Below are positions 997 through 28,556 of a stretch of 30,451 nt of DNA, one piece after another. Position numbers and translations under genes: made by a program. The DNA is from a virus (Duplodnaviria; Heunggongvirae; Uroviricota; Caudoviricetes): positions 1-30,451 of IMG/VR virus record IMGVR_UViG_2728369554_000010. One strand, 5' to 3'. Every line of letters begins with the position of its first letter. Position 1 is the stretch's first letter. The notes under the pieces are model-generated. The model worked only from the letters and a program-made list of their open reading frames with translations. It was not told the origin of the DNA and searched no databases.

Positions 997-1198
997 TACG
1001 TATCCTTATACCTGAAATCTTCGCAAGTATGCCTGGCCGCGAGATTATGGCACACTTGTCTGGTTAACTCTCGTCTCATACAGGTAACACAAACGTGAAA
1101 ATCCTTGTTGATGAAAAAGATGATGAGTTAATTTATTGATATAAAAGGATTTGTATCAACGTATGTCCACGCAGTGACCACATTTTCGAGGTATAGTC

Positions 1199-2182: not shown

Positions 2183-2563
2183 TTATGAGTTCTGGAATTC
2201 TTCAGCCCGTCTTTCCAGTTCAGCCATGAAAGAAGTTTTGGCTTTTTCGTGAGCATCTGGGGCCATGATGCTGATGATTTGTATATTGTCATAATCCATC
2301 CAGTGCCTTGTATAAACCAGATAGATATTTGAAGTTCTGTCTATTTGGGCTTTGCTTTTCTTCCATGGTGGTTCTGACGGTAGTCTTATGTGTAATTTAT
2401 ATACAAACGAACCACATAATCTTGCGTTATCTTCCCACTGCCCTTCATTGCCGAATCTGTCAGGGAGAACACCGGTATTTAACCAGTTTTCCAGAGCCTT
2501 TCCGTAAACTTTTGCAATGTCCTGGTATTCAACATCTTTATGAATGCTTACTTTGCTTGCCAT
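2183..2563 (-). CDS. YafO-family toxin-like protein
   Basis: 126 aa; motifs GVLPDRFG, HIRL, YLVYTRH, IISIMAPDAHEKAK, MAELERRAEEF align with my recollection of E. coli YafO (GVLPDIFG, HIHL, HLVYCQG, LIAILKPEPHKLAR, MAEAF); start overlaps the upstream stop. Confidence 0.5.
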   Translation of the reverse strand: MASKVSIHKDVEYQDIAKVYGKALENWLNTGVLPDRFGNEGQWEDNARLCGSFVYKLHIRLPSEPPWKKSKAQIDRTSNIYLVYTRHWMDYDNIQIISIMAPDAHEKAKTSFMAELERRAEEFQNS

Positions 2564-3189
2564 CAGGAAAACTCCGGTGCCGGGAGTCCCATGTTTTTAT
2601 GCTCGGCAATAATCATTGCTTTCACATTTCCGTCAGACAGCGTATTGCCCAGGCTGGTTGTTTTGTCTGGTGCGGTGCTTCGTTTGATGGTGTTGATGGC
2701 ATCACGAGCGATAAACTCTCCCTGCGCAATTGCCCGACCAAAACGAACCAGTTTATTGCGATAGGCGATTCTTTGCTCTAGGCTATCCGGATACATTTTT
2801 GCCAGGTTATCCGGATCCATTACAATTTTGACAGCCTCTTTAACACGGGTGTGCTGCTTAATTGACTCTTCGCATATTTTTATGATTTTTGCGGTTTTGT
2901 CAGTAAACAGTGCTCCCTTGCCTCTGTTCTGTCGTTCTTCAATGACTGCATTGAGCGCGGCGCGCATGTTGTCATTCAGCCCGTTGATATATTCAATAGC
3001 TTCTTCGAGAGGCAGAAACACCTGACCATCATGATGCTCAAATGTAAGCATTGAAACCACTCTGGCGTGTGTCGCGGATTCAATAACTGTTGTTGGTAGT
3101 ATCGTGCTTTTAGCTGGCACCGGAGCCAGTGATGCTGTCAGAGCTGTAGTAATAGCAGCAATGGCAGCAGACTTTGATTTTCGTTTCAT
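2563..3189 (-). CDS. Hypothetical signal-peptide (secreted/periplasmic) protein, translationally coupled to the YafO-like gene
   Basis: ORF 2563-3201; preferred start MKRKSKS at about 3189 with GGAG 6-7 nt upstream; N-terminus has basic n-region, Ala/Thr-rich h-region and PVPA-K cleavage-like site; no resemblance to YafN/Phd antitoxins. Confidence 0.5.
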   Translation of the reverse strand: MKRKSKSAAIAAITTALTASLAPVPAKSTILPTTVIESATHARVVSMLTFEHHDGQVFLPLEEAIEYINGLNDNMRAALNAVIEERQNRGKGALFTDKTAKIIKICEESIKQHTRVKEAVKIVMDPDNLAKMYPDSLEQRIAYRNKLVRFGRAIAQGEFIARDAINTIKRSTAPDKTTSLGNTLSDGNVKAMIIAEHKNMGLPAPEFS

Positions 3190-3261
3190 AATGCACTCCA
3201 CAGGTTGATGTGTTCAGCATATCGCAAATAGCAGCTTGTATAAAGAAACGCCACATCAGCA

Positions 3262-3523
3262 GCGATCGTTTTACGCGCTTTTCTTCTTGTTGCGATCCTT
3301 TTTTTCAGTTTTATTTTGGAGCTTAATTTTGTGCAGGCCGCGCCGTGTCTGCCTTCTTTGTTTGATGGCTGTTTGATGCGATCCTTTCGTGATCGTTTTT
3401 TTGTCTCGCGTAAAGTATGAAAACTCTTTTAATATCATGCGGTTTTATTGCTCCGGCCATTTGTGCGATCGTAAAAACCACTTTGAAAACTGCAAAAAAT
3501 TTCAAAGCGTGAAATTTCAGATC
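3262..3523. promoter_or_regulatory. GATC-rich intergenic region with repeated GCGATC(G/C)TTTT-like motifs
   Basis: Six GATC sites in about 260 bp (near 3264, 3294, 3380, 3391, 3467, 3520), several inside a reiterated GCGATC-T-run motif; lies upstream of the secreted-protein/YafO-like operon. Confidence 0.35.
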
Positions 3524-3628
3524 TTCGCTTTTCCCTCAGTTGCTGCGCGGGCTGGCGGTCATTTTTGCACGGCAGAAAACTGAAAAACTGTTTCGACACG
3601 AAACCCGCGGGTTGGAGGGGGTAGCGCG

Positions 3629-3671
3629 GTTTACGTCACCTCACGCTTTACGTCACACCGTTTACGCGGTG
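3629..3671. repeat. Three direct repeats of TTTACG(T/C) motif (iteron-like) near the prophage boundary
   Basis: GTTTACGTCAC, CTTTACGTCAC, CGTTTACGCGG at 15-17 bp spacing; adjacent GTTTCG-ACA-CGAAAC and AACCCGCGGGTT palindromes at about 3586-3612. Confidence 0.4.
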
Positions 3672-3789
3672 TGCGCATACAGCGCCAGAATGGCACGCAG
3701 AACGCATTAATCAGGTGGCAGATATGAAAACGCACGACCGGAGCCGTGCGTTGCGTGATGGGCGTTTATGGGGGTGGTATGCCCGGTGA

Positions 3790-5487
3790 TCAGGCGATAA
3801 GGTCACCGTATTTTTCGCGCAGGCTCGTAGCCTGTTTGGCGTCTGCGGCAAGTTCGCTGCTGTTTGTTGGTGCGCCGGTGTTGCTGTGGGTGTGGTTTGC
3901 AGTGTGTGTGGCCAGCAACTGAACCAGATCCAGAATATCAATCAACAACGTCAGCAGATTAAGTCCGGATTTTTCCCGTGAGCCACCGCGACCAATAAAT
4001 ACTGTCGGGGCTGTAAACTCCAGACCACCGTCCGCCCGGCATGTTCTGCGGCCTCCCACGTTTTCAGTAAGGTCGCGCTCAATCGTGGATGTCGCCCCTT
4101 TGAGTTTAGTCAGCAAATCCTGCGCTACCATCTGGATATGCTCACCGGCTGCGATCGCATAATGACCAGTAGTAATGTGTTCTGTCTGGCCTGTCATCAG
4201 CTTGCTGGTTCCCAGAACGCTGGTTATGTCGTTTGCCTGTACTGTTGTTGTTCTGGTTGTTGTTGTGCGTTCTTCCTGATCGCTGTTAATGGTTCGTCTG
4301 GCTGAATGCTCCCTGATTTGCTGATCGGTTTCTCTGTGCCAGCTTCCGTCAGTCGTGACGCGCTGAAACACTTCTGCGCGCTGTTGCTGCAGCTGTTCGC
4401 CGGGCTTTACATCAGGCAGGTTATGGCCAGCGGGTAAGATTTGCCTGATAACGGGTTTGTCCGGACGTCCTTCAATGTTGGATATTTCCACGATGGTGCC
4501 TGCCGGTGGGTAGGCAAAACATCCCGCCTCACTGCCAGCCATGGGGACGGGGAGCGGTACTGCCGGGTAAACGGGCGTGTCGCTTTTATCGTTGCCGTTC
4601 TCATCAAGCAACTGCACATCGACGGCGTAGCGTGGGCGGAAACTGTCGGCCACGTCGCCCAGGGTGGTGGGCTCCGTTGGCGCAATGACGCGCGCCAGCC
4701 GGGTATGTAGCGTACCGCTGGCCAGTTCCGGGAACTGTGTTTCCATTTGTCTGCGTAATGGTGATTTGGAAACAGGGTTACCCGTGGCGGTAAGGCGCTC
4801 CCATGTCAGGGTCATTTTCTCGTTGTTGAGGGCTACACGGGTAATGCGCCCGGCCGGTAGGTTCACGCCCGGTCGCACAGTTTCCATAAACATGATGTCG
4901 ATGCTGTTTCCGCCGCTTTGCCCGAGTGTGTACTGTTGCGGAATATCCGGTATTGTAATACTGGCAAATCGTGAATCAGCTGCGCTTCCCACAAATACAG
5001 AACCGTCCGGCATAGGGTGCCAGACGTAATCGCTGATACTGAATGCTCGCCCCAGTTGGCTGAGCAGTTGTGCTCCGCTGCCACTGTGGGTGATGTAGGG
5101 AGTTGGTATACTGGCATAATCCGCATCCGGAGTGATAAAAACGATACCGCTTTGTCGCCCCAGATTATCGAGTACCCCCCGCAACGTCGGGTGTTGCATG
5201 GAGCAAGGGAAATCAAAATCCAGCACAGCAGCCGCTTCACGAATAAAAAGGCGACGTGAGCCATTTTCAGCAGGTTGATCGCGCTCAATGTAGCCGGAGA
5301 AATAGCGCCATGCTTCACCGTCACGGCCGAGATCAATTTGTACCATTGCGCCGGCAAGGCTGTGTTCGGGTGACAGATTGTTAACAGAAATGAAGCCACG
5401 ACCGGCAGCATTCAGGGTAAGAACAAGGCTTATATCGGCAATTTCCACCTGTTCGCCATTAATCATGCAGCGTTGTATCAATTTCAT
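3790..5487 (-). CDS. Phage tail protein, putative baseplate central spike/hub-like (C-terminal HxH apex-like motif)
   Basis: 565 aa; last gene of the late operon, start overlaps upstream stop; C-terminal LLATHTANHTHSNTGAPT resembles the His-rich apex of P2 gpV-type spikes (from memory); function not certain. Confidence 0.4.
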   Translation of the reverse strand: MKLIQRCMINGEQVEIADISLVLTLNAAGRGFISVNNLSPEHSLAGAMVQIDLGRDGEAWRYFSGYIERDQPAENGSRRLFIREAAAVLDFDFPCSMQHPTLRGVLDNLGRQSGIVFITPDADYASIPTPYITHSGSGAQLLSQLGRAFSISDYVWHPMPDGSVFVGSAADSRFASITIPDIPQQYTLGQSGGNSIDIMFMETVRPGVNLPAGRITRVALNNEKMTLTWERLTATGNPVSKSPLRRQMETQFPELASGTLHTRLARVIAPTEPTTLGDVADSFRPRYAVDVQLLDENGNDKSDTPVYPAVPLPVPMAGSEAGCFAYPPAGTIVEISNIEGRPDKPVIRQILPAGHNLPDVKPGEQLQQQRAEVFQRVTTDGSWHRETDQQIREHSARRTINSDQEERTTTTRTTTVQANDITSVLGTSKLMTGQTEHITTGHYAIAAGEHIQMVAQDLLTKLKGATSTIERDLTENVGGRRTCRADGGLEFTAPTVFIGRGGSREKSGLNLLTLLIDILDLVQLLATHTANHTHSNTGAPTNSSELAADAKQATSLREKYGDLIA

Positions 5488-6059
5488 GTTTTCCCTTCCT
5501 CTTTCACGCTCCCGATGCCAACAGCATCCAGACCAGAGCCAACGGCATCATTGATTTTTTTCCAGAACGAACTTTGCGTATTCATGCCTTTGTCTGGTAC
5601 CTGTTCGCTGCCATTCTGGGTCTGCTGTCTGGCGATGGTTTTTTGCGAACCGCTGCGTGCGGATGCTTTCTCTGGCACGCTTAATTTTTCCCTGAGAGTA
5701 AAGGTGATCTGCCAGTGCATTTTTCCCTGTTGTTCCGTGGCATCAATGCCACCAGAAAATACCCCCTGTCGCATATTGATTGCCTTCGCGGTAGCGTTAG
5801 CAATGCGATATGTTTTTTTAGCACCGTTGCTTTCTGTTGCCTCCGCAAGCTGAAAAATACGGGTCAGAATAGCTTCATCGTTAAAATCAATAACCCCCGA
5901 CACGCGCAGCTCTTTAGCCTTGTTTCCCTGCTGGGCGCTCGTGGTGCTGGTTGACTGTCCGGACATATCTTTGTCCGGTAGTTGCATGGTGGCGCTGACG
6001 GTGATGTTACGCAGCAGAATGGCTTCCCCGTCAAGCGCAAGGACAATCATCTGGGTCAT
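5484..6059 (-). CDS. Phage tail-associated protein, function unknown
   Basis: 191-aa ORF whose stop overlaps the spike-like gene start; sits in the tail operon; no motif I can name. Confidence 0.4.
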   Translation of the reverse strand: MTQMIVLALDGEAILLRNITVSATMQLPDKDMSGQSTSTTSAQQGNKAKELRVSGVIDFNDEAILTRIFQLAEATESNGAKKTYRIANATAKAINMRQGVFSGGIDATEQQGKMHWQITFTLREKLSVPEKASARSGSQKTIARQQTQNGSEQVPDKGMNTQSSFWKKINDAVGSGLDAVGIGSVKEEGKT

Positions 6060-9912: not shown

Positions 9913-11613
9913 TTAAACACTCGCCACGTTATACCAGGTGCCGTTAATCAGTTTCTGAAGCGGTCGGTAATACACGCCGCCGATGTTATCTGCCGAATTA
10001 CTTCCGGTTTCCTGCACATTAATACCAGATAATCCATGGCCTGAAGGTGAGCGAAATGTCCAGGATATCTGGTTACCTCCCGGGTTGTAATACATTTCGG
10101 AACCATAACGCACATCCTGCACGCCGCCTGTTTTGGTCTGGTAACGGGCATCAAAGTTTCCGTAGTCTGACGGTGTTACCCGCCCGGTAACGTTTACAGG
10201 TTTATTACTCTGAATGCTGCCATTCTGAAAACGCAACACATGCACGCTATTGGCATAAACATCCAGCAGGCCATCACCATTCTGTTTCAGGCCGGTATCG
10301 TTATCCCCGAAAGCAATTGAGTTTCCGCCCAGCGCATTCTGAACGCCGATACCCAACGCACCGTTAACTTTCGAACCACCGCCAACAGATACTGCGTGTG
10401 GCATGGAAACTTCACCCGTCCGCAAATTAATAGTGAACGGACGCAGGGGGCCAATATCGCCATTCTCGCCCTGACCTTCACTGGTAGGGATAAGGTGCAG
10501 GCACTCTTCCGAACGACGAAAAATCAGGCCAAAAGCTTCGTTGAAAATCCTCAGTGCATTAACACCACGGATTTTCAGCTCCCCGGTCATGGTGTCGCCG
10601 TCGCGCTCAACAGCGTCTTTTGCTTTATCCATTGCGGCTTTTACTGCCTTTGATGTGGCGGCGCGGTCTTCTGCGTCGCTGTCGGTGGAGTTGCTGTACT
10701 GCGCAAAGCCTTTCTCCTTCAGTGTTGCGTCCGGATGATGGCGGGATTTTTCGTGCTCTGCCAGTGCATTGCTTTGTTCTTCGTCTGGTGTCTCCGGGCG
10801 CAGGTCCTGTGGGCCGTCTCCTGTCATTTTTGCAAGTGGCGCGACAAAGTGTCGGAAGCCGTTACCGTCTGTATAAGACGCATGTTCCTGGCGGGCGCAG
10901 AACGTAAAAACGGTATTCCATTCGCCAGTAACAAATCCCTGCCAGCTTGCATCAATCCAGAGGGTATCCCCGACCGCAGCCGGCAGGCTGTAAGGTTCGC
11001 GCAGACTGACGCGCAGACCTCCCACATAACCCACGCCGGCGGCAACAGTAGCGGTACCGTCCTGATAGCTGACCTGAAAACCATCCCCCAGAAAAGCGGC
11101 TTCACCGTAGTGATCAAACGCCAGCAGCCGGCGGGCCTCATCCATTCCTGCAAGGCGTGCAGTGAAATCAATCTGCCAGACATCAGCGCTGACATCGATA
11201 TGCATTGCTGCGGCTGCGCCGTCAAACTCCATGGAAAATGTGCGGATCAGGTTGTTTCCCTGCACGCCGTTCGCTGTTTTAATTTTTTGCTGACGAGGTG
11301 TGTGTGCAATCATGCAGAGCACGCCGCTTTCTTCGTTCAGCAGACCGATCCAGTTGTATTCGAAGTCGCCGACTGTCGTGTCCAGAATGATGGAAAACGC
11401 GGTCGCGTTCGGCGACAGGAGGCCGTACTGGGTGACCGGCGCACGATACTGAATCATGGATTCATCAGGGAGTATCTCATCGCGGGGGATCTCTGCGGAT
11501 TCATCCTGTCCCGGAATATATGCAAAAACAAATGTATCCGGGCGCGCAGGTTTTCCACTGATGATTTGATTTGCGCACCAGTGTTCGTACTGTTCAGTAA
11601 TAATCGTGCTCAT
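9913..11613 (-). CDS. Tail fibre protein 1 (P2 gpH-like C-terminal region)
   Basis: 566 aa; HEKSRHHPDATLKEKGF, NALGGNSIAFGDNDTGLKQNGDGLLDVYANS, NFDARY and C-terminal INGTWYNVASV closely parallel P2 gpH as I recall it. Confidence 0.85.
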   Translation of the reverse strand: MSTIITEQYEHWCANQIISGKPARPDTFVFAYIPGQDESAEIPRDEILPDESMIQYRAPVTQYGLLSPNATAFSIILDTTVGDFEYNWIGLLNEESGVLCMIAHTPRQQKIKTANGVQGNNLIRTFSMEFDGAAAAMHIDVSADVWQIDFTARLAGMDEARRLLAFDHYGEAAFLGDGFQVSYQDGTATVAAGVGYVGGLRVSLREPYSLPAAVGDTLWIDASWQGFVTGEWNTVFTFCARQEHASYTDGNGFRHFVAPLAKMTGDGPQDLRPETPDEEQSNALAEHEKSRHHPDATLKEKGFAQYSNSTDSDAEDRAATSKAVKAAMDKAKDAVERDGDTMTGELKIRGVNALRIFNEAFGLIFRRSEECLHLIPTSEGQGENGDIGPLRPFTINLRTGEVSMPHAVSVGGGSKVNGALGIGVQNALGGNSIAFGDNDTGLKQNGDGLLDVYANSVHVLRFQNGSIQSNKPVNVTGRVTPSDYGNFDARYQTKTGGVQDVRYGSEMYYNPGGNQISWTFRSPSGHGLSGINVQETGSNSADNIGGVYYRPLQKLINGTWYNVASV

Positions 11614-12245
11614 GCTTCATCTGCCTGTAATGTGTAATGTTCCACGGACAGGCCGTAATGTCCTGCCTGTAGCGAAGCGGTTAACCAGATGGTGTCCTTT
11701 CTCACCGTTGCTTCTGCTGTGTGATACCTGTAATGGCCGTCGAATGTGCTGGCTGTCAGCCGGGCGGTGGTTGTATTGATTACCTGAAAGAAATAGCGCC
11801 TGCAGGTACGGCCATACTGGCGCACGAGCTGCATCATCAGCGCATTGTTTTCACTTAACTGGGTGTCATTAATGCGCAGTAAAATAACGTCCCAGTCATG
11901 CTGCAGCTGCCGTTCCAGTGTTTTAACGTCTCCCACGCCAAGACGCTTAAAGATGCGTTCGAATCCGGCGCGTTCGCCCGAGTCCTGAGCGTTAATAAAC
12001 GCGTGTTTCACCCTTAAGCGAAATAACGAAACCGGCTCCCCTTTAAATCGGGTGATATTGCGCTGATAAGCCAGCAGGTTAAGTAAAGGCTCTGCGCAGG
12101 TGTCGACATCAATCTGCTGTAGTGGCCACGTCAGCCAGCTGTATACCTTTTCCCAGTAGCGATGCGATGAATGTGCCAGCGTTAACGGCTCGCCTTTATT
12201 CATCCAGGTGGGAAGCGGGAATTCAGGGATCTCCGGAAGTTTCAC
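11610..12245 (-). CDS. Baseplate wedge protein, tail protein I-like (putative)
   Basis: 211 aa between J-like gene and fibre, overlapping both (coupled); assignment is mainly positional. Confidence 0.45.
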   Translation of the reverse strand: MKLPEIPEFPLPTWMNKGEPLTLAHSSHRYWEKVYSWLTWPLQQIDVDTCAEPLLNLLAYQRNITRFKGEPVSLFRLRVKHAFINAQDSGERAGFERIFKRLGVGDVKTLERQLQHDWDVILLRINDTQLSENNALMMQLVRQYGRTCRRYFFQVINTTTARLTASTFDGHYRYHTAEATVRKDTIWLTASLQAGHYGLSVEHYTLQADEA

Positions 12246-20557: not shown

Positions 20558-21268
20558 TTACGTGCCCTGCAACGCGCGCAGTCTTGCGGCAATGCGCTGG
20601 CGCAGGGTTTTCACCTGAATTTTTGGATGCAGCCAGGCAGCCTGTTCCAGACACTGGTCGGCCTGTTGCAGTCTCTCCGGATCGTTAATTGCACTGGCCA
20701 GCGGTTTACCGTCATCGCCGCGCAGCAGCAGGACGCCTGCAAAGCGCCAGTAGCGGGCAGCAAGGCGTTCATTCACGCGCCATTTGTCGCGGATTTTTTC
20801 AAACACCTGCTGAAAATATGGCGCGATACTGTTCCCGCGTTCAGCTTCGGTTTCTGCCCATTCAAGAATGAAATGGGCCACAAACGTTGGCAGCTCGCTT
20901 TTGAAGTTCTCCGGCGTCTTTTGCCCCTGCTCAATGGCAATGTCAGCCCACCGCAGCGCTATCTCAAACTGCCCGGTATCGAACAGCCAGATGATGCAGT
21001 ACACCAGAATGGGATTCTGATAGACGCGTTCCCCCTCCAGATAAGCCTGTGCGTGTGGCAGCCAGCGGGGCAGCAGCGTGTTCCGTTTGAATTCCAGCTT
21101 GTCAGACAGCAGCTCCATGTTGTGCAGTTGTCTGATGTCGTTATCCAGTGCCAGCAGCTTAATGTGCTGACTCTCTGTGCTGATGGCGCTCCCGTCCGTT
21201 CTGGTCATGAGCGCCGCACGGCGCTCATCCATCTGTCGGGCACGTTGTCGCTGCATTGGCGTTGGCAT
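20558..21268 (-). CDS. M: Terminase endonuclease (small) subunit, gpM-like
   Basis: 236 aa, downstream of major capsid gene in canonical P2 O-N-M-L order. Confidence 0.65.
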   Translation of the reverse strand: MPTPMQRQRARQMDERRAALMTRTDGSAISTESQHIKLLALDNDIRQLHNMELLSDKLEFKRNTLLPRWLPHAQAYLEGERVYQNPILVYCIIWLFDTGQFEIALRWADIAIEQGQKTPENFKSELPTFVAHFILEWAETEAERGNSIAPYFQQVFEKIRDKWRVNERLAARYWRFAGVLLLRGDDGKPLASAINDPERLQQADQCLEQAAWLHPKIQVKTLRQRIAARLRALQGT

Positions 21269-23398: not shown

Positions 23399-25186
23399 AT
23401 GGCGTATTCTGATGAGGTGATTGCTGCTGCAAAATCGCTCTATCTGAAAAGACACACACCAAAAGAAATACAAAAGAAGCTCGGACTGAACAGCCCGCGA
23501 ATTGTTTATTACTGGGCGACAAAGTTTGAGTGGTACACACAGCTTAATGCTGAAGGCGTGGAGGATGTTATCGCTCGTCGTCTCGCTGTACTGGCGGAGC
23601 GTGATCATAAAACGCCGGAAGAGCACGATGAACTTGATCGCCTGATTGGTCATCACGTCAAACTGATGTCGGTCAGGAACAAGCACACGGAACGCATGGC
23701 CGAGATTGAACGAATGGGAGCGGATATTCCCCAGTCTGGTCGTTATGGAAAAGAAGAACGCGGAGAAAAAGGTGCAGGTAAGAAAGAGCGCCCCCGCAAA
23801 GCTAATGACGTTTCCGGACTGACTGCTGAAAGTTTTGAGCCGTTTACGAAAAAGTTGTTTGCTTATCAGTTGCATCTGCGTGAAAACAAATTCCGCCGTG
23901 TACGCAACCTGCTTAAATCCCGCCAGATTGGGGCGACGTATTACTTCGCGTTTGAGGCATTTGAAGATGCAGTATTAACCGGCGACACACAGATATTTTT
24001 ATCGGCATCAAAACGTCAGGCCGAAGTGTTCCGTACTTATATTGTAAAAATTGCACAAACAGAGTTTGGCATTCCCATTAAAGGCAATCCGGTTAAGTTA
24101 AGTAATCTGGCTGAACTGTATTTTCTGGCGACCAACAGTAACACAGCGCAGTCAAACAGCGGCCACCTGTATATTGATGAATACCTGTGGATCCCCGGTT
24201 TTCGCCGTCTCAATGAAGTGGCATCAGGGATGGCCACCCATAAACACTGGCGCATTACCTATTTCTCCACGCCGTCATCCAAAACACACCAGGGTTACCC
24301 GTTCTGGTCTGGCGATGAATGGCGCAAAGGCGATCCGAAACGAAAAGGGGTTGAGTTTCCGTCCTTTGATGAGCTGCGCGATGGTGGGCGTGAATGTCCG
24401 GATGGTCAGTGGCGCTATGTGGTTACGCTGGAAGATGCCATTGCCGGCGGCTTTAACCTTGCTGACATCAACGAGCTGCGCGAGCGATACAACGAAACAG
24501 CGTTCAATATGCTGTTTATGTGTGTGTTTGTGGATGACAAAGAGAGCGTCTTTAAATTCGATGATCTTGTGCGTTGTGGTGTTGATGTCAGTACGTGGGA
24601 GGATTTTCACCCGGAAGAGCCCATGCCATTTGGTAACCGTGAAGTGTGGGGCGGCTTTGACCCTGCGCGCTCCGGCGATAACGCCACATTTGTTGTGCTG
24701 GCACCGCCGCTGGTTGCGGCAGAACGATTCCGCGTGCTGGAAAAACACCACTGGCGCAGCATGTCATTCCAGTTTATGGCAGAGCGTATCCGCAGCATTA
24801 AGGCGCGCTATAACATGACATTTATCGGCATTGACGTCACCGGTCTTGGCTACGGTGTCTTTGAGCTGGTTCAGGGATTTGCCCGCCGTGAAACAGTGGC
24901 CATTCATTACAGCGTGGAATCCAAAAACCGCCTGGTGATGAAGATGCTGGATCTGATTTACGCCAACCGTATTGAGTGGGATGAAGAAGCCACGGATATT
25001 CCGGCATCGTTCCTGGCCATTCGTCAGGAATCCACCAACAGCGGCAATAAAGTCACTTTCACCGCCGAACGTAGCGAAGAAACCGGGCACGCTGACATCT
25101 TCTTTGCCATAGCTCATGCCGCAAGTAATGAACCCCTGAACTATAAGCACAAGCGCAAATCAACATGGATCCTGTCAGATGAGTAA
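23399..25186 (+). CDS. P: Terminase large (ATPase) subunit, gpP-like
   Basis: 595 aa; GGTGAGG SD; motifs KSRQIGATYYFAFEAF and IDEYLWIPGF typical of P2-type terminase; overlaps portal start by 8 nt. Confidence 0.85.
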   Translation: MAYSDEVIAAAKSLYLKRHTPKEIQKKLGLNSPRIVYYWATKFEWYTQLNAEGVEDVIARRLAVLAERDHKTPEEHDELDRLIGHHVKLMSVRNKHTERMAEIERMGADIPQSGRYGKEERGEKGAGKKERPRKANDVSGLTAESFEPFTKKLFAYQLHLRENKFRRVRNLLKSRQIGATYYFAFEAFEDAVLTGDTQIFLSASKRQAEVFRTYIVKIAQTEFGIPIKGNPVKLSNLAELYFLATNSNTAQSNSGHLYIDEYLWIPGFRRLNEVASGMATHKHWRITYFSTPSSKTHQGYPFWSGDEWRKGDPKRKGVEFPSFDELRDGGRECPDGQWRYVVTLEDAIAGGFNLADINELRERYNETAFNMLFMCVFVDDKESVFKFDDLVRCGVDVSTWEDFHPEEPMPFGNREVWGGFDPARSGDNATFVVLAPPLVAAERFRVLEKHHWRSMSFQFMAERIRSIKARYNMTFIGIDVTGLGYGVFELVQGFARRETVAIHYSVESKNRLVMKMLDLIYANRIEWDEEATDIPASFLAIRQESTNSGNKVTFTAERSEETGHADIFFAIAHAASNEPLNYKHKRKSTWILSDE

Positions 25187-26555: not shown

Positions 26556-26607
26556 CAACCCGGAACGGGCGCACAAAGAATTTGCGCACCCGTTCCGGGT
26601 TTTCTTA
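26556..26607. terminator. Long hairpin (AACCCGGAACGGG...CCCGTTCCGGGTT) with T-run between convergent ogr and rrf2-like genes
   Basis: About 13-bp near-perfect stem with nested inner stem, followed by TTTTCTTATT on the plus strand. Confidence 0.5.
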
Positions 26608-26964
26608 TTCAATGGCAGACAACTGATAATTTGTGTCTTCCTGCAGGCTGGTTAAAGAAATATTATCCAGTGCAGCCAGAATAACGTGCTGTGTATATAA
26701 TCCGGAACATTTCATTGCCCGGACAATATCACCAACACTGTAATTTTCTTTTGTCGGGATATATCCACCACCCGGGCCGCGTGTGGCTTTTACCAGGCTA
26801 CTTTCCCGTAAATATCTGAATATTTGCTCCAGATATGACAGTGAAACGGTTTCTTTGCTTAATTGCCGGAGCGAGATTGGCTTTCCGGTGTACTGTTTCA
26901 CAAATTTAATCATTACCATAACTGCAACTGATGCACGCTGGCTTCCGGAATTATCTTTCATCAT
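26605..26964 (-). CDS. Rrf2-family winged-helix transcriptional regulator (short form, no Fe-S cysteine cluster)
   Basis: ORF 26605-27030; preferred start MMKDNS at about 26964 with GGAAG upstream; VSLSYLEQIFRYLRESSLVKATRGPGGGY matches the Rrf2/IscR recognition-helix signature; about 119 aa. Confidence 0.6.
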   Translation of the reverse strand: MMKDNSGSQRASVAVMVMIKFVKQYTGKPISLRQLSKETVSLSYLEQIFRYLRESSLVKATRGPGGGYIPTKENYSVGDIVRAMKCSGLYTQHVILAALDNISLTSLQEDTNYQLSAIE

Positions 26965-26975
26965 GATTACTTCCA

Positions 26976-27263
26976 TTAATGGCATAAATTGATGGAGCGG
27001 GTCAGTGAATAAAGAGGCAATACATTCCATCCCTTAGAGCGCCAGCTGTCTGCAACATCTTTACTTCTTGTTATCGCCGGTATTCCAATAGGATTATTTG
27101 CGTGCATCCATGCCACTGGCTCTGCTTCCAGTGATGCAAGTGCGATTTCCAGTGCGATTAACATATTGTGATCGTCTTCATCAAGACCGAACGGGATGTC
27201 TTCGCGCCACGATTTAAACTCTGTGATTTTACGTTGTAACCATTCTTTGGTAATGGTGGACAT
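26976..27263 (-). CDS. Hypothetical protein (95 aa) in the par operon
   Basis: ORF 26976-27281; preferred start MSTITKEWLQ at about 27263 with AGGAG 5 nt upstream; 14 nt downstream of the parR-like stop. Confidence 0.4.
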   Translation of the reverse strand: MSTITKEWLQRKITEFKSWREDIPFGLDEDDHNMLIALEIALASLEAEPVAWMHANNPIGIPAITRSKDVADSWRSKGWNVLPLYSLTRSINLCH

Positions 27264-27277
27264 AGTTACTCCTGTTT

Positions 27278-27592
27278 TCACTTCGGGAAAAACGCCTGAA
27301 TATTCTTTTTCACCTGCTGCATATGGGGGGCGCTGTCTGCTGCTGGTTGCGCCGGTTTTTCAGGCTGTACTGGTAGCGGTGGCATCCGTATTTCGTCTTC
27401 TGACCATTCTGCCAGCGAATACGCCAACGCGGGGGTGCGTTTTATAAGAGCCAGTCCGGCCAGAAAAGCCGCGCGTTGTGCGCGGCTGCGTTCGGAGGCT
27501 GGCAGGCTGTCGAGGTAACTGCACGCCTCCCGTTCGCTCTTGACGACGGCGGGCTTCAGATAGAAACTTATCCGTCTGGTTGGTGTCGTCAT
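27278..27592 (-). CDS. parR: ParR-like centromere-binding partition protein
   Basis: ORF 27278-27721; preferred start MTTPTRR at about 27592 with AGGAG inside the parM 3' end; ISFYLKPAVVKSEREACSYLDSLPASERSRAQRAAFLAGLALIKRTP parallels plasmid R1 ParR as I recall it. Confidence 0.6.
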   Translation of the reverse strand: MTTPTRRISFYLKPAVVKSEREACSYLDSLPASERSRAQRAAFLAGLALIKRTPALAYSLAEWSEDEIRMPPLPVQPEKPAQPAADSAPHMQQVKKNIQAFFPK

Positions 27593-27596
27593 TGAT

Positions 27597-28556
27597 TTAC
27601 TCCTTGTCCATTGCGTACAGCCCATTAACCAGAGCAAACTGTGGCACCCCGTCCGCGATGAAAGTCGCATTAACTCCGCAGGCTTCGCGGATAGCGGGTG
27701 CCACAATCTCTGCCCCTCCACCTACAACCATCACCCGCCCGTAACCCGAAAAACCCGCCAGCGCGCGGATCACGCGTTGTTTCAGTGTTTCTTCCTTTTC
27801 ACGAATAACAGCCATCAGGCTGGCGTAATGTGCGTTATTGTGGATGTGCTGGCGCAGCCAGGCTTCATCGTGGCGATGTTCGATAATGGTATTGGCGATG
27901 TGGTGACTGGTGCGCATACCGTTAGTGGCCATTACCGACAGTACGGCATCGGCCATCAGGGAAACGCCTACGTGTGGATCGCAAAACACCTGGCTGATAC
28001 CTGCCAGTTGCCCCTGAACCTTTGCCACATCCAGCGTGGTTCCGCCCAAATCCACAATCAGCAGGGATTCAAACGGACTCATGTCAGCCAGTGCTTTAAA
28101 GCCAGCCGGAATGGATTCAGGCATAACCCGCACGTTACGGATAGTGAATGCCTCGCCGTTCTGGTACTCCACCGGGCGCATAACGTTCGCTTTTTTGCGG
28201 TTGATGTTGGCCATGTCCGGCTGTGCGTTTGTGTCGAAATACTCGCTCAGTGGCAGGGTGACAACCACATCCACCTCCTGTGGCGTGATGCCTGATTTGA
28301 CCAGCGCATGATGAATGGCAATGACATTCACATCGCTGTACTGGTATTGCGTGTCGGTCGTCTGGACAAAGCGATCGCTGACCGGATCAAAACCATAGCG
28401 CACGCCATCAAGCATGTAGTTCGCGGGCTGCGTGCCACCGAACGGCGCAGACCATTCTGACTTGAAGCTGTTCGGGCTGATGGCGTTGCGGCGTTCGCCG
28501 TTCTCAGTCCATGCCAGCTTGATGTTGGTGGATCCGTCGTCGATACAAATTTTCAT
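27597..28556 (-). CDS. parM: ParM/StbA-family actin-like plasmid segregation ATPase
   Basis: 319 aa; MKICIDDGSTNIKLAW...ISPNSFKSEW...YQYSDVNVIAIHHAL...LLIVDLGGTTLD...VMVVGGGAE parallels plasmid R1 ParM along its length (from memory). Confidence 0.8.
   Translation of the reverse strand: MKICIDDGSTNIKLAWTENGERRNAISPNSFKSEWSAPFGGTQPANYMLDGVRYGFDPVSDRFVQTTDTQYQYSDVNVIAIHHALVKSGITPQEVDVVVTLPLSEYFDTNAQPDMANINRKKANVMRPVEYQNGEAFTIRNVRVMPESIPAGFKALADMSPFESLLIVDLGGTTLDVAKVQGQLAGISQVFCDPHVGVSLMADAVLSVMATNGMRTSHHIANTIIEHRHDEAWLRQHIHNNAHYASLMAVIREKEETLKQRVIRALAGFSGYGRVMVVGGGAEIVAPAIREACGVNATFIADGVPQFALVNGLYAMDKE

Follow-up and report, generated by a model that had tools for sequence, protein, structure and literature searches.

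We analysed a window of 30,451 bp, meaning the whole stretch of DNA under study, in which five GATC sites at 3294-3523 appear to form a conserved accessory array beside cos in a P2-family prophage of the HP1/ESSI-2 type, an array that is probably read through its methylation. We put the probability of this reading at roughly 55%. The sites belong to a cluster that the preliminary description had singled out as holding six GATC within about 260 bp where roughly one was expected, and the count was confirmed exactly: the sites lie at 3264, 3294, 3380, 3391, 3467 and 3520 (span 3262-3523), with consecutive spacings of 30, 86, 11, 76 and 53 bp. A comparison of GATC density, proposed in the same description and run here over the window, gave 2.66 per kb overall (81 GATC in 30,451 bp), or 0.70 expected per 262 bp, and a Poisson probability of 8.8e-5 for six or more. 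None of 5,000 dinucleotide shuffles of 3262-3523 reached six (mean 0.73), and any other 262-bp stretch of the window held at most five. When sites were placed uniformly over the whole 30-kb window, a scan gave P = 0.04 for the cluster. E. coli carries ~4.1 GATC per kb, a density that yields ~15 such clusters per genome by chance, and for this reason the count by itself is no proof of function. Judged from the alignments below, it is conservation, not count, that makes the cluster real.

The description had also pointed to a reiterated GCGATC motif followed by a T-run, and repeat finding recovered it as family D1, with three copies at 3262, 3292 and 3378. Read on the minus strand, this motif is RANGATC (RA-N-GATC). 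It occurs 14 times in the whole window, counting both strands, against 26 expected from shuffles, and 5 of the 14 fall inside the cluster, all on the minus strand.

By homology, the window is an E. coli junction between flk and a prophage, and the prophage is an HP1/ESSI-2-like member of the Peduoviridae. The ORF at 1-996 is chromosomal flk, homology common to all 5426 complete E. coli genomes stops at 1117, and everything to the right of that point is prophage. The features that define the junction and the phage type are:

1110..1141: chromosome/prophage junction (att) beside flk, with the homology end at 1117 and an IHF match
3790..5487, minus strand: 565-aa baseplate protein, the last late gene (phrog_2258, E = 2.8e-232; homologue of HP1/HP2 orf35)
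20558..21268, minus strand: terminase small subunit, gpM type (Pfam Phage_term_smal, E = 3.5e-36)
23399..25186, plus strand: terminase large subunit, gpP type (Pfam Terminase_6N, Terminase_6C and Terminase_5)

The prophage also has capsid, scaffold and portal genes of P2 type (Pfam matches to Phage_portal, Phage_cap_P2 and Phage_GPO), along with an ogr-like gene and gene A from 29786 onwards, and an HP1_ORF34 protein lies among the tail-end genes, as in Haemophilus phage HP1. Homologues of the baseplate protein were found by tblastn in ESSI-2, SW5, HP2, phiO18P and others. At 45-47% protein identity, Cronobacter ESSI-2, Escherichia ESSI2_ev015, ev129 and ev239, Salmonella SW5 and SI7, and Yersinia YenM_324 come closest among sequenced phages. 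Only 66-67 of the 5426 E. coli genomes carry the intergenic DNA that holds the array, always downstream of an orf35-like baseplate gene. We considered the end of a Mu-like transposable phage, given A/T-rich repeats and a weak GemA match, and rejected it: the GemA match is chromosomal Flk, and the head, terminase and replication genes are of P2 type.

Several other features of the prophage were recorded along the way. The strict IHF-consensus match lies at 1129-1141, 12 bp inside the junction, and would fit an att arm. Just past the junction, the opening gene of the prophage (1118-2056) codes for a DUF4875 protein whose N-terminus carries a zinc ribbon. Members of the prophage family integrate at two sites or more, flk/pdxB and pheL/raiA. 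The P2-type position of cos and hotspot (26605-28556), flanked by the ogr-like gene and gene A, is occupied here by an Rrf2-family regulator (26605-27030) together with a ParM-type actin-like segregation ATPase (27597-28556). This arrangement suggests that plasmid-like maintenance is possible, and one relative also has an annotated partitioning/stability partner gene. Two related prophages carry, at ~10630-11700 in the tail-fibre region, a fragment that RefSeq annotates as a "shikimate transporter" pseudogene, either an odd insertion or an annotation artefact.

We place the predicted cos of this prophage at about 3607-3624, because the core sequence there aligns with the termini of its relatives. 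The elements of the region are:

3607..3624: predicted cos core, GCGGGTTGGAGGGGGTAG, by homology to phage termini
3590..3604: perfect palindrome GTTTCGACACGAAAC, adjoining the cos core
3576..3587, minus strand: T5-6CAGT4 motif, copy 1, reading AAAACTGAAAAA on the plus strand (repeat families D6, I2 and I4)
3486-3497, same orientation as copy 1: T5-6CAGT4 motif copy with one mismatch
3301-3312, inverted relative to copy 1: T5-6CAGT4 motif copy
3545..3554 and 3334-3343: GC-rich inverted repeat, GCGCGGGCTG and CAGGCCGCGC respectively (I14; 90% complementary, 201 nt apart)
3627..3668, plus strand: direct TTTACG repeats CGGTTTACGTCAC, CGCTTTACGTCAC and CCGTTTACGCGG (family D5), on the gene-proximal side of cos
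3727..3751, minus strand: hairpin and T-run downstream of the baseplate gene, conserved in the alignment

The core lies 166-183 bp beyond the baseplate stop at 3790 and occurs once in the window. In a MAFFT alignment, 3607-3624 matched the termini of ESSI-2, ev015, ev129, SW5, phiO18P and the HP1 cosL; set side by side, the core reads CTACCCCCTCCAACCCGC in the window, CTACACCGCACCCGC in ESSI-2 and CTCATCCGCTCCCGCC in the phiO18P cosL. The distances agree as well. ESSI-2 has a 15-nt terminal redundancy, GCGGGTGCGGTGTAG, at both record ends, 199 bp past the baseplate gene; the SW5 record ends 175 bp past the baseplate gene and the HP2 record 196 bp past orf35; phiO18P has an annotated 16-nt cosL/cosR 200 bp past the baseplate gene; and in HP1 the annotated cosL precedes attP (251-694) and int. 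The ev015 and ev129 records break at the spot homologous to the core, with adapter attached. These RefSeq/ENA termini of ESSI2_ev015 and ESSI2_ev129 carry Nextera adapter (ending in TCGTCGGCAGCGTCAGATGTGTATAAGAGACAG, and CTGTCTCTTATACACATCTGACGCTGCCGACGA) over the first 48 and first 43 bases of the two records and the last ~48 of the second, which is contamination, yet it marks the cos ends. A P2-type cos beside the portal gene was sought and is absent; the ogr-like zinc-finger gene occupies that position. By location, core homology and terminase type, the locus is a member of the HP1-like Peduoviridae cos regions.

Read along the minus strand, the order is baseplate gene, hairpin, TTTACG repeats, cos core, an array region of ~310 bp and a variable cargo hotspot. 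The hairpin is probably the late-operon terminator, and K139 has an annotated terminator, T39, at the matching position. The TTTACG repeats are candidate terminase-binding (cosB-like) repeats, and the right end of HP2 carries a repeated CACGGAAA/CACGTAAA at the equivalent position. A T5-6CAGT4 block flanks cos in every lineage compared, HP2 included, and P2 has a shorter TTTTTTCAG at +43. Where the window has its palindrome, ESSI-2-like phages have a GATC-centred quasi-palindrome at the equivalent place, about 12 bp from cos. The arms of the GC-rich inverted repeat bracket most of the GATC array and are conserved in Edwardsiella and ESSI-2 (CAGGCCGCGCCAGC / GCTGGCGCGGCCCG); they may let the cos region loop or bind a dimeric protein. 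An Rfam scan of 2900-4100 at E <= 1 found no RNA family, and a DNA search of the phage collection with 3150-3800 found no match, the relatives having been reached through the baseplate protein. Terminator-like matches on the plus strand near the array were set aside as by-products of the GATC/T-run motifs.

The GATC sites of the cos flank are:

3294..3523, minus strand: cos-flank array of five GATC (3294, 3380, 3391, 3467 and 3520)
3380..3394: GATC pair 11 bp apart, about one helical turn, invariant in 28/28 relatives

These sites lie at roughly +84, +137, +213, +224 and +310 from cos, all within 84-313 bp and on one side only, opposite to the baseplate gene. Four of the five read RA-N-GATC on the minus strand and the one at 3467 reads TACGATC, with the A-rich side toward cos; a hand check found the helical phasing of all five to be approximate only. 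To follow the sites across relatives, we used a set of 28 distinct sequences from E. coli, E. albertii and Edwardsiella. GATC was kept at the aligned columns 3294, 3380 and 3391 in 28/28 each, at 3520 in 27/28 and at 3467 in 26/28. Mean column identity was 0.99 for GATC vs. 0.887 for other non-coding columns (permutation P = 6.5e-4), and the base adjoining GATC on its variable (3') side changed freely while the tetramer itself stayed fixed. By this column comparison, and by the recurrence in distant relatives shown below, the sites are non-random Dam-type targets and are apparently under selection. To this extent the Dam/SeqA reading of the preliminary description is partly supported, but not its further readings as a promoter switch or an origin, which are taken up below.

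Distances from the baseplate stop are similarly stable. In 32 relatives (E. coli, E. albertii and IMG/VR), GATC offsets fall at ~270, 323, 399, 410 and 495, with further ones at 512 and 525 in most close relatives, and no GATC occurs between the stop and +268. Edwardsiella prophages, whose baseplate protein is 61% identical, have offsets of 277, 319, 406, 417, 503 and 514. Small ORFs in 3271-3710 were considered and rejected: relatives differ there by 1- and 2-nt indels, and a coding function of the region is therefore excluded. A seventh GATC at 3788-3791 arises where the baseplate stop codon lies inside TGATCA; it is found in many but not all relatives (TAATCA, TGAACA or TGAGCT elsewhere), unlike the conserved array.

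The sixth site of the cluster has a different origin, as the features to the left of the array indicate:

2183..3289, minus strand: mobile cargo module of a 212-aa protein, the YafO toxin and an 88-bp upstream region
3264..3267: sixth GATC, inside the upstream region of the cargo module and not in the cos flank

A P2-like prophage near serS carries the same module at its ogr end (2982-4088 of its locus); window 3202-3289 matches it at 98-99% identity, and the similarity stops at 3289/3290. By this comparison, the 212-aa/YafO module is a mobile moron that takes 88 bp of upstream sequence along. The toxin is recognized by Pfam YafO_toxin (E = 1.1e-27). The 212-aa protein (2563-3201, and 5414-6040 in the locus of a relative) has no Pfam or PHROG match and a signal-peptide-like N-terminus, and it sits at the antitoxin position of the YafO pair, although it is far larger than YafN; its annotation in one RefSeq genome as "iron-sulfur cluster assembly scaffold protein SufA" looks like a misannotation.

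Other relatives have other cargo beside the array. In most, hok/gef adjoins the array, with a Com-regulated N6_N4 methyltransferase beyond it; in others the neighbour is hok with a DUF4875 gene, and in HP1, HP2 and SW5 it is attP/int. The five-site array persists whichever cargo adjoins it, and it therefore belongs to cos rather than to a cargo promoter. The cos flank gives way to cargo only a few bases from the outermost GATC motif (immediately after AAAAAAGGATC), at 3289-3297 in the window and likewise in relatives, and cargo exchange seems to occur right at the array edge. In the raiA-integrated relatives, a Mu Com-like zinc-ribbon gene overlaps an N6_N4-class DNA methyltransferase gene at the prophage end (4324-5272 of their loci), a pair that resembles the com/mom layout with a methyltransferase instead, and two relatives have a truncated Com/methyltransferase copy beside an ATP-dependent nuclease. 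With respect to location, the preliminary description was right to put the cluster upstream of the 212-aa/YafO operon, but not next to the prophage end, as the junction at ~1117 lies ~2.1 kb further left. On the evidence of the alignments, what the cluster points to is cos rather than the end of the prophage.

Equivalent arrays lie beside cos in ESSI-2, ev015/ev129, SW5, HP1/HP2, K139 and phiO18P. We compared 330 bp each from the far side of cos in eight lineages (the window, Edwardsiella, ESSI-2, ev015, SW5, HP2, K139 and phiO18P), and these flanks together held 32 GATC vs. 9.6 expected (P = 9e-9), though P values here overstate independence because the compared sequences are phylogenetically related. 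Among the 256 tetramers, GATC was the most over-represented (32 vs. 5.6 under a first-order Markov model, z = 11), and no other palindromic tetramer was enriched in the eight flanks. The tetramers ranking next were CAGT, CCGC, GGAT and TCAG, with the enriched CAGT/TCAG/ACTG/CTGA group stemming from the T5CAGT4 motif. Enrichment within any single phage was modest (P = 0.01-0.17), and the gene-proximal side of cos held zero or one GATC in the compared phages. An alignment-based scan supplied the diversity of IMG/VR, a scan of contigs with a single protein having yielded 3 loci. Across 55 non-redundant IMG/VR loci, the bins at 350-450 bp held 52 and 43 GATC vs. 9.4 in the coding control, with recurrent offsets after the stop at, for example, 123, 222, 349, 360 and 425. 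A few of these loci showed no array.

The positions and the orientation of the sites recur as well. Counted from the TTTTTCAG anchor, the window lineage has sites at +117 and +193, and ESSI-2, ev015 and ev129 have sites at exactly these two offsets, in sequence that otherwise barely aligns among them. Over 31 sites, A stands at -2 in 25 and a purine at -3 in 26, vs. T at the mirror position +2 in only 7, so the sites have a direction, with the A-rich side toward cos throughout. Pairs of GATC at 10-12 or 21-23 bp are found in ev015, ev129, K139, phiO18P, HP2 and SW5; ESSI-2 has no close pair, and HP1 has lost one of the HP2 sites. A literature search found no paper on a GATC array at a Peduoviridae cos site.

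We propose that a DNA-binding protein would read the array sites according to their Dam-methylation state, and this would tie cos recognition or cleavage to replication and to the methylation status, as at P1 pac; by this analogy, the array suggests methylation-sensitive packaging as in phage P1. The most likely reader would be the gpM/gpP terminase, with the gpM-type small subunit the candidate for recognizing the cos-flank motifs, and SeqA binding to hemimethylated pairs one helical turn apart would be the alternative. GATC is a poor substrate for methylation when an A4 tract precedes it (PMC4417163), and the A-tract just upstream of most sites may slow Dam re-methylation and so lengthen the hemimethylated period. 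Dam-class enzymes occur in the family: Pfam MethyltransfD12 recognizes ESSI-2 gp35 and the SW5 Dam, and a dam gene is annotated in HP2. The early region of the window lineage has no Dam-class gene, and this lineage would therefore rely on host Dam. The TTTACG repeats and T5CAGT4 motifs are equal or better candidates for the primary terminase site, and the reader of the GATC sites may differ from the protein that binds there. The more specific claim, that in the HP1-like phages of Haemophilus, Vibrio, Aeromonas, Edwardsiella, Cronobacter, Salmonella and Escherichia the cos-side Dam array is a methylation sensor gating terminase recognition or cleavage, we regard as tentative, and it could well be wrong.

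Among the other explanations, the one that survives best, though still unlikely, is that the array serves as a landing pad where SeqA would bind newly replicated, hemimethylated phage DNA without any part for the terminase, for example to time circularisation or ligation, to hold back transcription across cos or to organise replicating concatemers. The pairs described above are separated by whole helical turns in nearly all lineages, and whole-turn spacing is reportedly preferred by SeqA according to Brendler and Austin in 1999. Conservation of the tetramer beside a variable 3' neighbour would also suit such a role. However, recognition by SeqA and Dam is symmetric, yet the sites are strongly directional (25/31), and an asymmetric reader, be it terminase or a different site-specific protein, is therefore favoured over SeqA alone; moreover, ESSI-2 manages without a close pair. 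No replication-origin features were found in the region, and the array region holds no DnaA boxes. The origin that the preliminary description had in mind likewise fails on this absence, and by annotation replication in the P2 family starts at a nick within gene A.

An improbable reading is that the array is a Dam-dependent epigenetic switch with Lrp or OxyR, of the pap or gtr type, that sets the ON/OFF state of the leftward cargo, here the 212-aa/YafO operon. The motif CGATC(N)TTTT resembles the pap GATC box, and the clustered sites of pap Dam/Lrp switches and of the region upstream of Mu mom have the same Dam-slowing A/T-tract flanks, which are typical of slowly methylated regulatory GATCs. 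Relatives of the window prophage even carry a nearby Com-regulated methyltransferase. The array does lie upstream of a leftward operon, and accessory and defence genes are known from cos-adjacent hotspots (PMC9122126). By contrast with pap and mom, the window array lacks a promoter (a scan of 3100-3900 found no sigma-70-like site), the 102-bp two-box geometry of pap (its spacings are 86, 11, 76 and 53 bp) and any dependence on the neighbouring gene, being kept beside hok, Com with methyltransferase, YafO or attP/int (HP1, HP2 and SW5). The YafO module, for its part, has 88 bp of upstream DNA of its own and works in the setting of a different phage, where the array is absent. The suggestion in the preliminary description of a phase-variable promoter for a secreted-protein/YafO operon is therefore not sustained, given the module's own upstream region and the independence of the array from its cargo.

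We consider it just as doubtful that GATC has no function as such, the sites being part of a longer binding or bending motif (A-tract plus GGATC) or simply shared by descent, with Dam irrelevant. The relatives are indeed phylogenetically related, enrichment within single phages is weak, and several GATC sites have been lost in some lineages. Still, GATC comes out on top of all 256 tetramers in a comparison of lineages with non-aligning flanks, exact positions are kept amid diverged sequence, and the base beside GATC varies where the tetramer is fixed. It is very improbable that the cluster is an attachment site or prophage end with arm sites for integrase or Cox: the array of HP1, HP2 and SW5 does lie between cos and attP/int, but the annotated HP1 attP (251-694) excludes the GATC sites at 112-165, and the window junction at ~1117 is 2.2 kb away with cargo between.

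The preferred reading, a cos accessory array, can be set against the phage packaging sites already described. HP1, HP2, phiO18P and ESSI-2 share with the window the order orf33-34-35, terminator and cos ~170-200 bp downstream, together with a pyrimidine-rich cos core, a T5-6CAG motif and GATCs on the int or cargo side; the window lineage differs in its higher number of GATCs (5-7) and in the cargo hotspot that separates the array from attP. The cos of P2, 186 and P4 resembles it in terminase family and in a TTTTTTCAG about 40 bp from the cohesive end. In P2, by contrast, cos lies beside the portal gene Q, and the genome is GATC-depleted (0.74 per kb), with none within 260 bp of cos and no such array. 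At lambda cosB/cosQ, the nicking site is likewise flanked by arrays of repeated elements to which proteins bind and which direct terminase, but the R sites and IHF site of lambda have no Dam sites, and the cos/array region of the window has no strict IHF consensus.

To our knowledge, phage P1 has the sole packaging site known to be gated by adenine methylation, and the work on its pac site is said to be that of Sternberg and Coulby. At P1 pac, seven TGATCA/G repeats bind pacase, and methylation controls both binding and cleavage (PMC10028697). The likeness lies in directional GATC-containing repeats clustered beside the terminase cut site, in the window a predicted cos, in a Dam that is commonly phage-encoded in the family and in the proposed gating by methylation. 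The P1 repeats, however, are TGATCA/G elements on both sides of the cut and inside pacA, whereas the window has RA-N-GATC sites with a variable 3' side, on one side only, in ~230 bp of non-coding DNA. P1 also uses a PacA/PacB pacase and headful packaging, vs. the gpM/gpP P2-type terminase of the window, whose relatives have cohesive ends. The analogy is imperfect because a cos phage must cut every cos, whereas P1 leaves later pac sites uncut. By consensus, enzyme type and packaging mode, then, the array is not of the P1 pac family, but by analogy the two may work alike.

These results relocate cos for this prophage group. In P2 and P4, a hotspot of accessory genes adjoins cos (PMC9122126), and the variable cargo seen here (hok, Com-methyltransferase, nuclease and YafO) makes the same kind of cos-adjacent hotspot. 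They also carry a warning, as GATC clusters at prophage margins should not be taken as the phase-variation switch of the nearest gene. A whole phage subfamily keeps a directional array of GATC sites at set distances from cos, and this offers a concrete hypothesis. The role of the orphan Dam methyltransferases of temperate phages is still poorly understood (PMC7556043), and if the hypothesis is true, it would provide both a cos-phage counterpart of P1 pac and a function for these enzymes.
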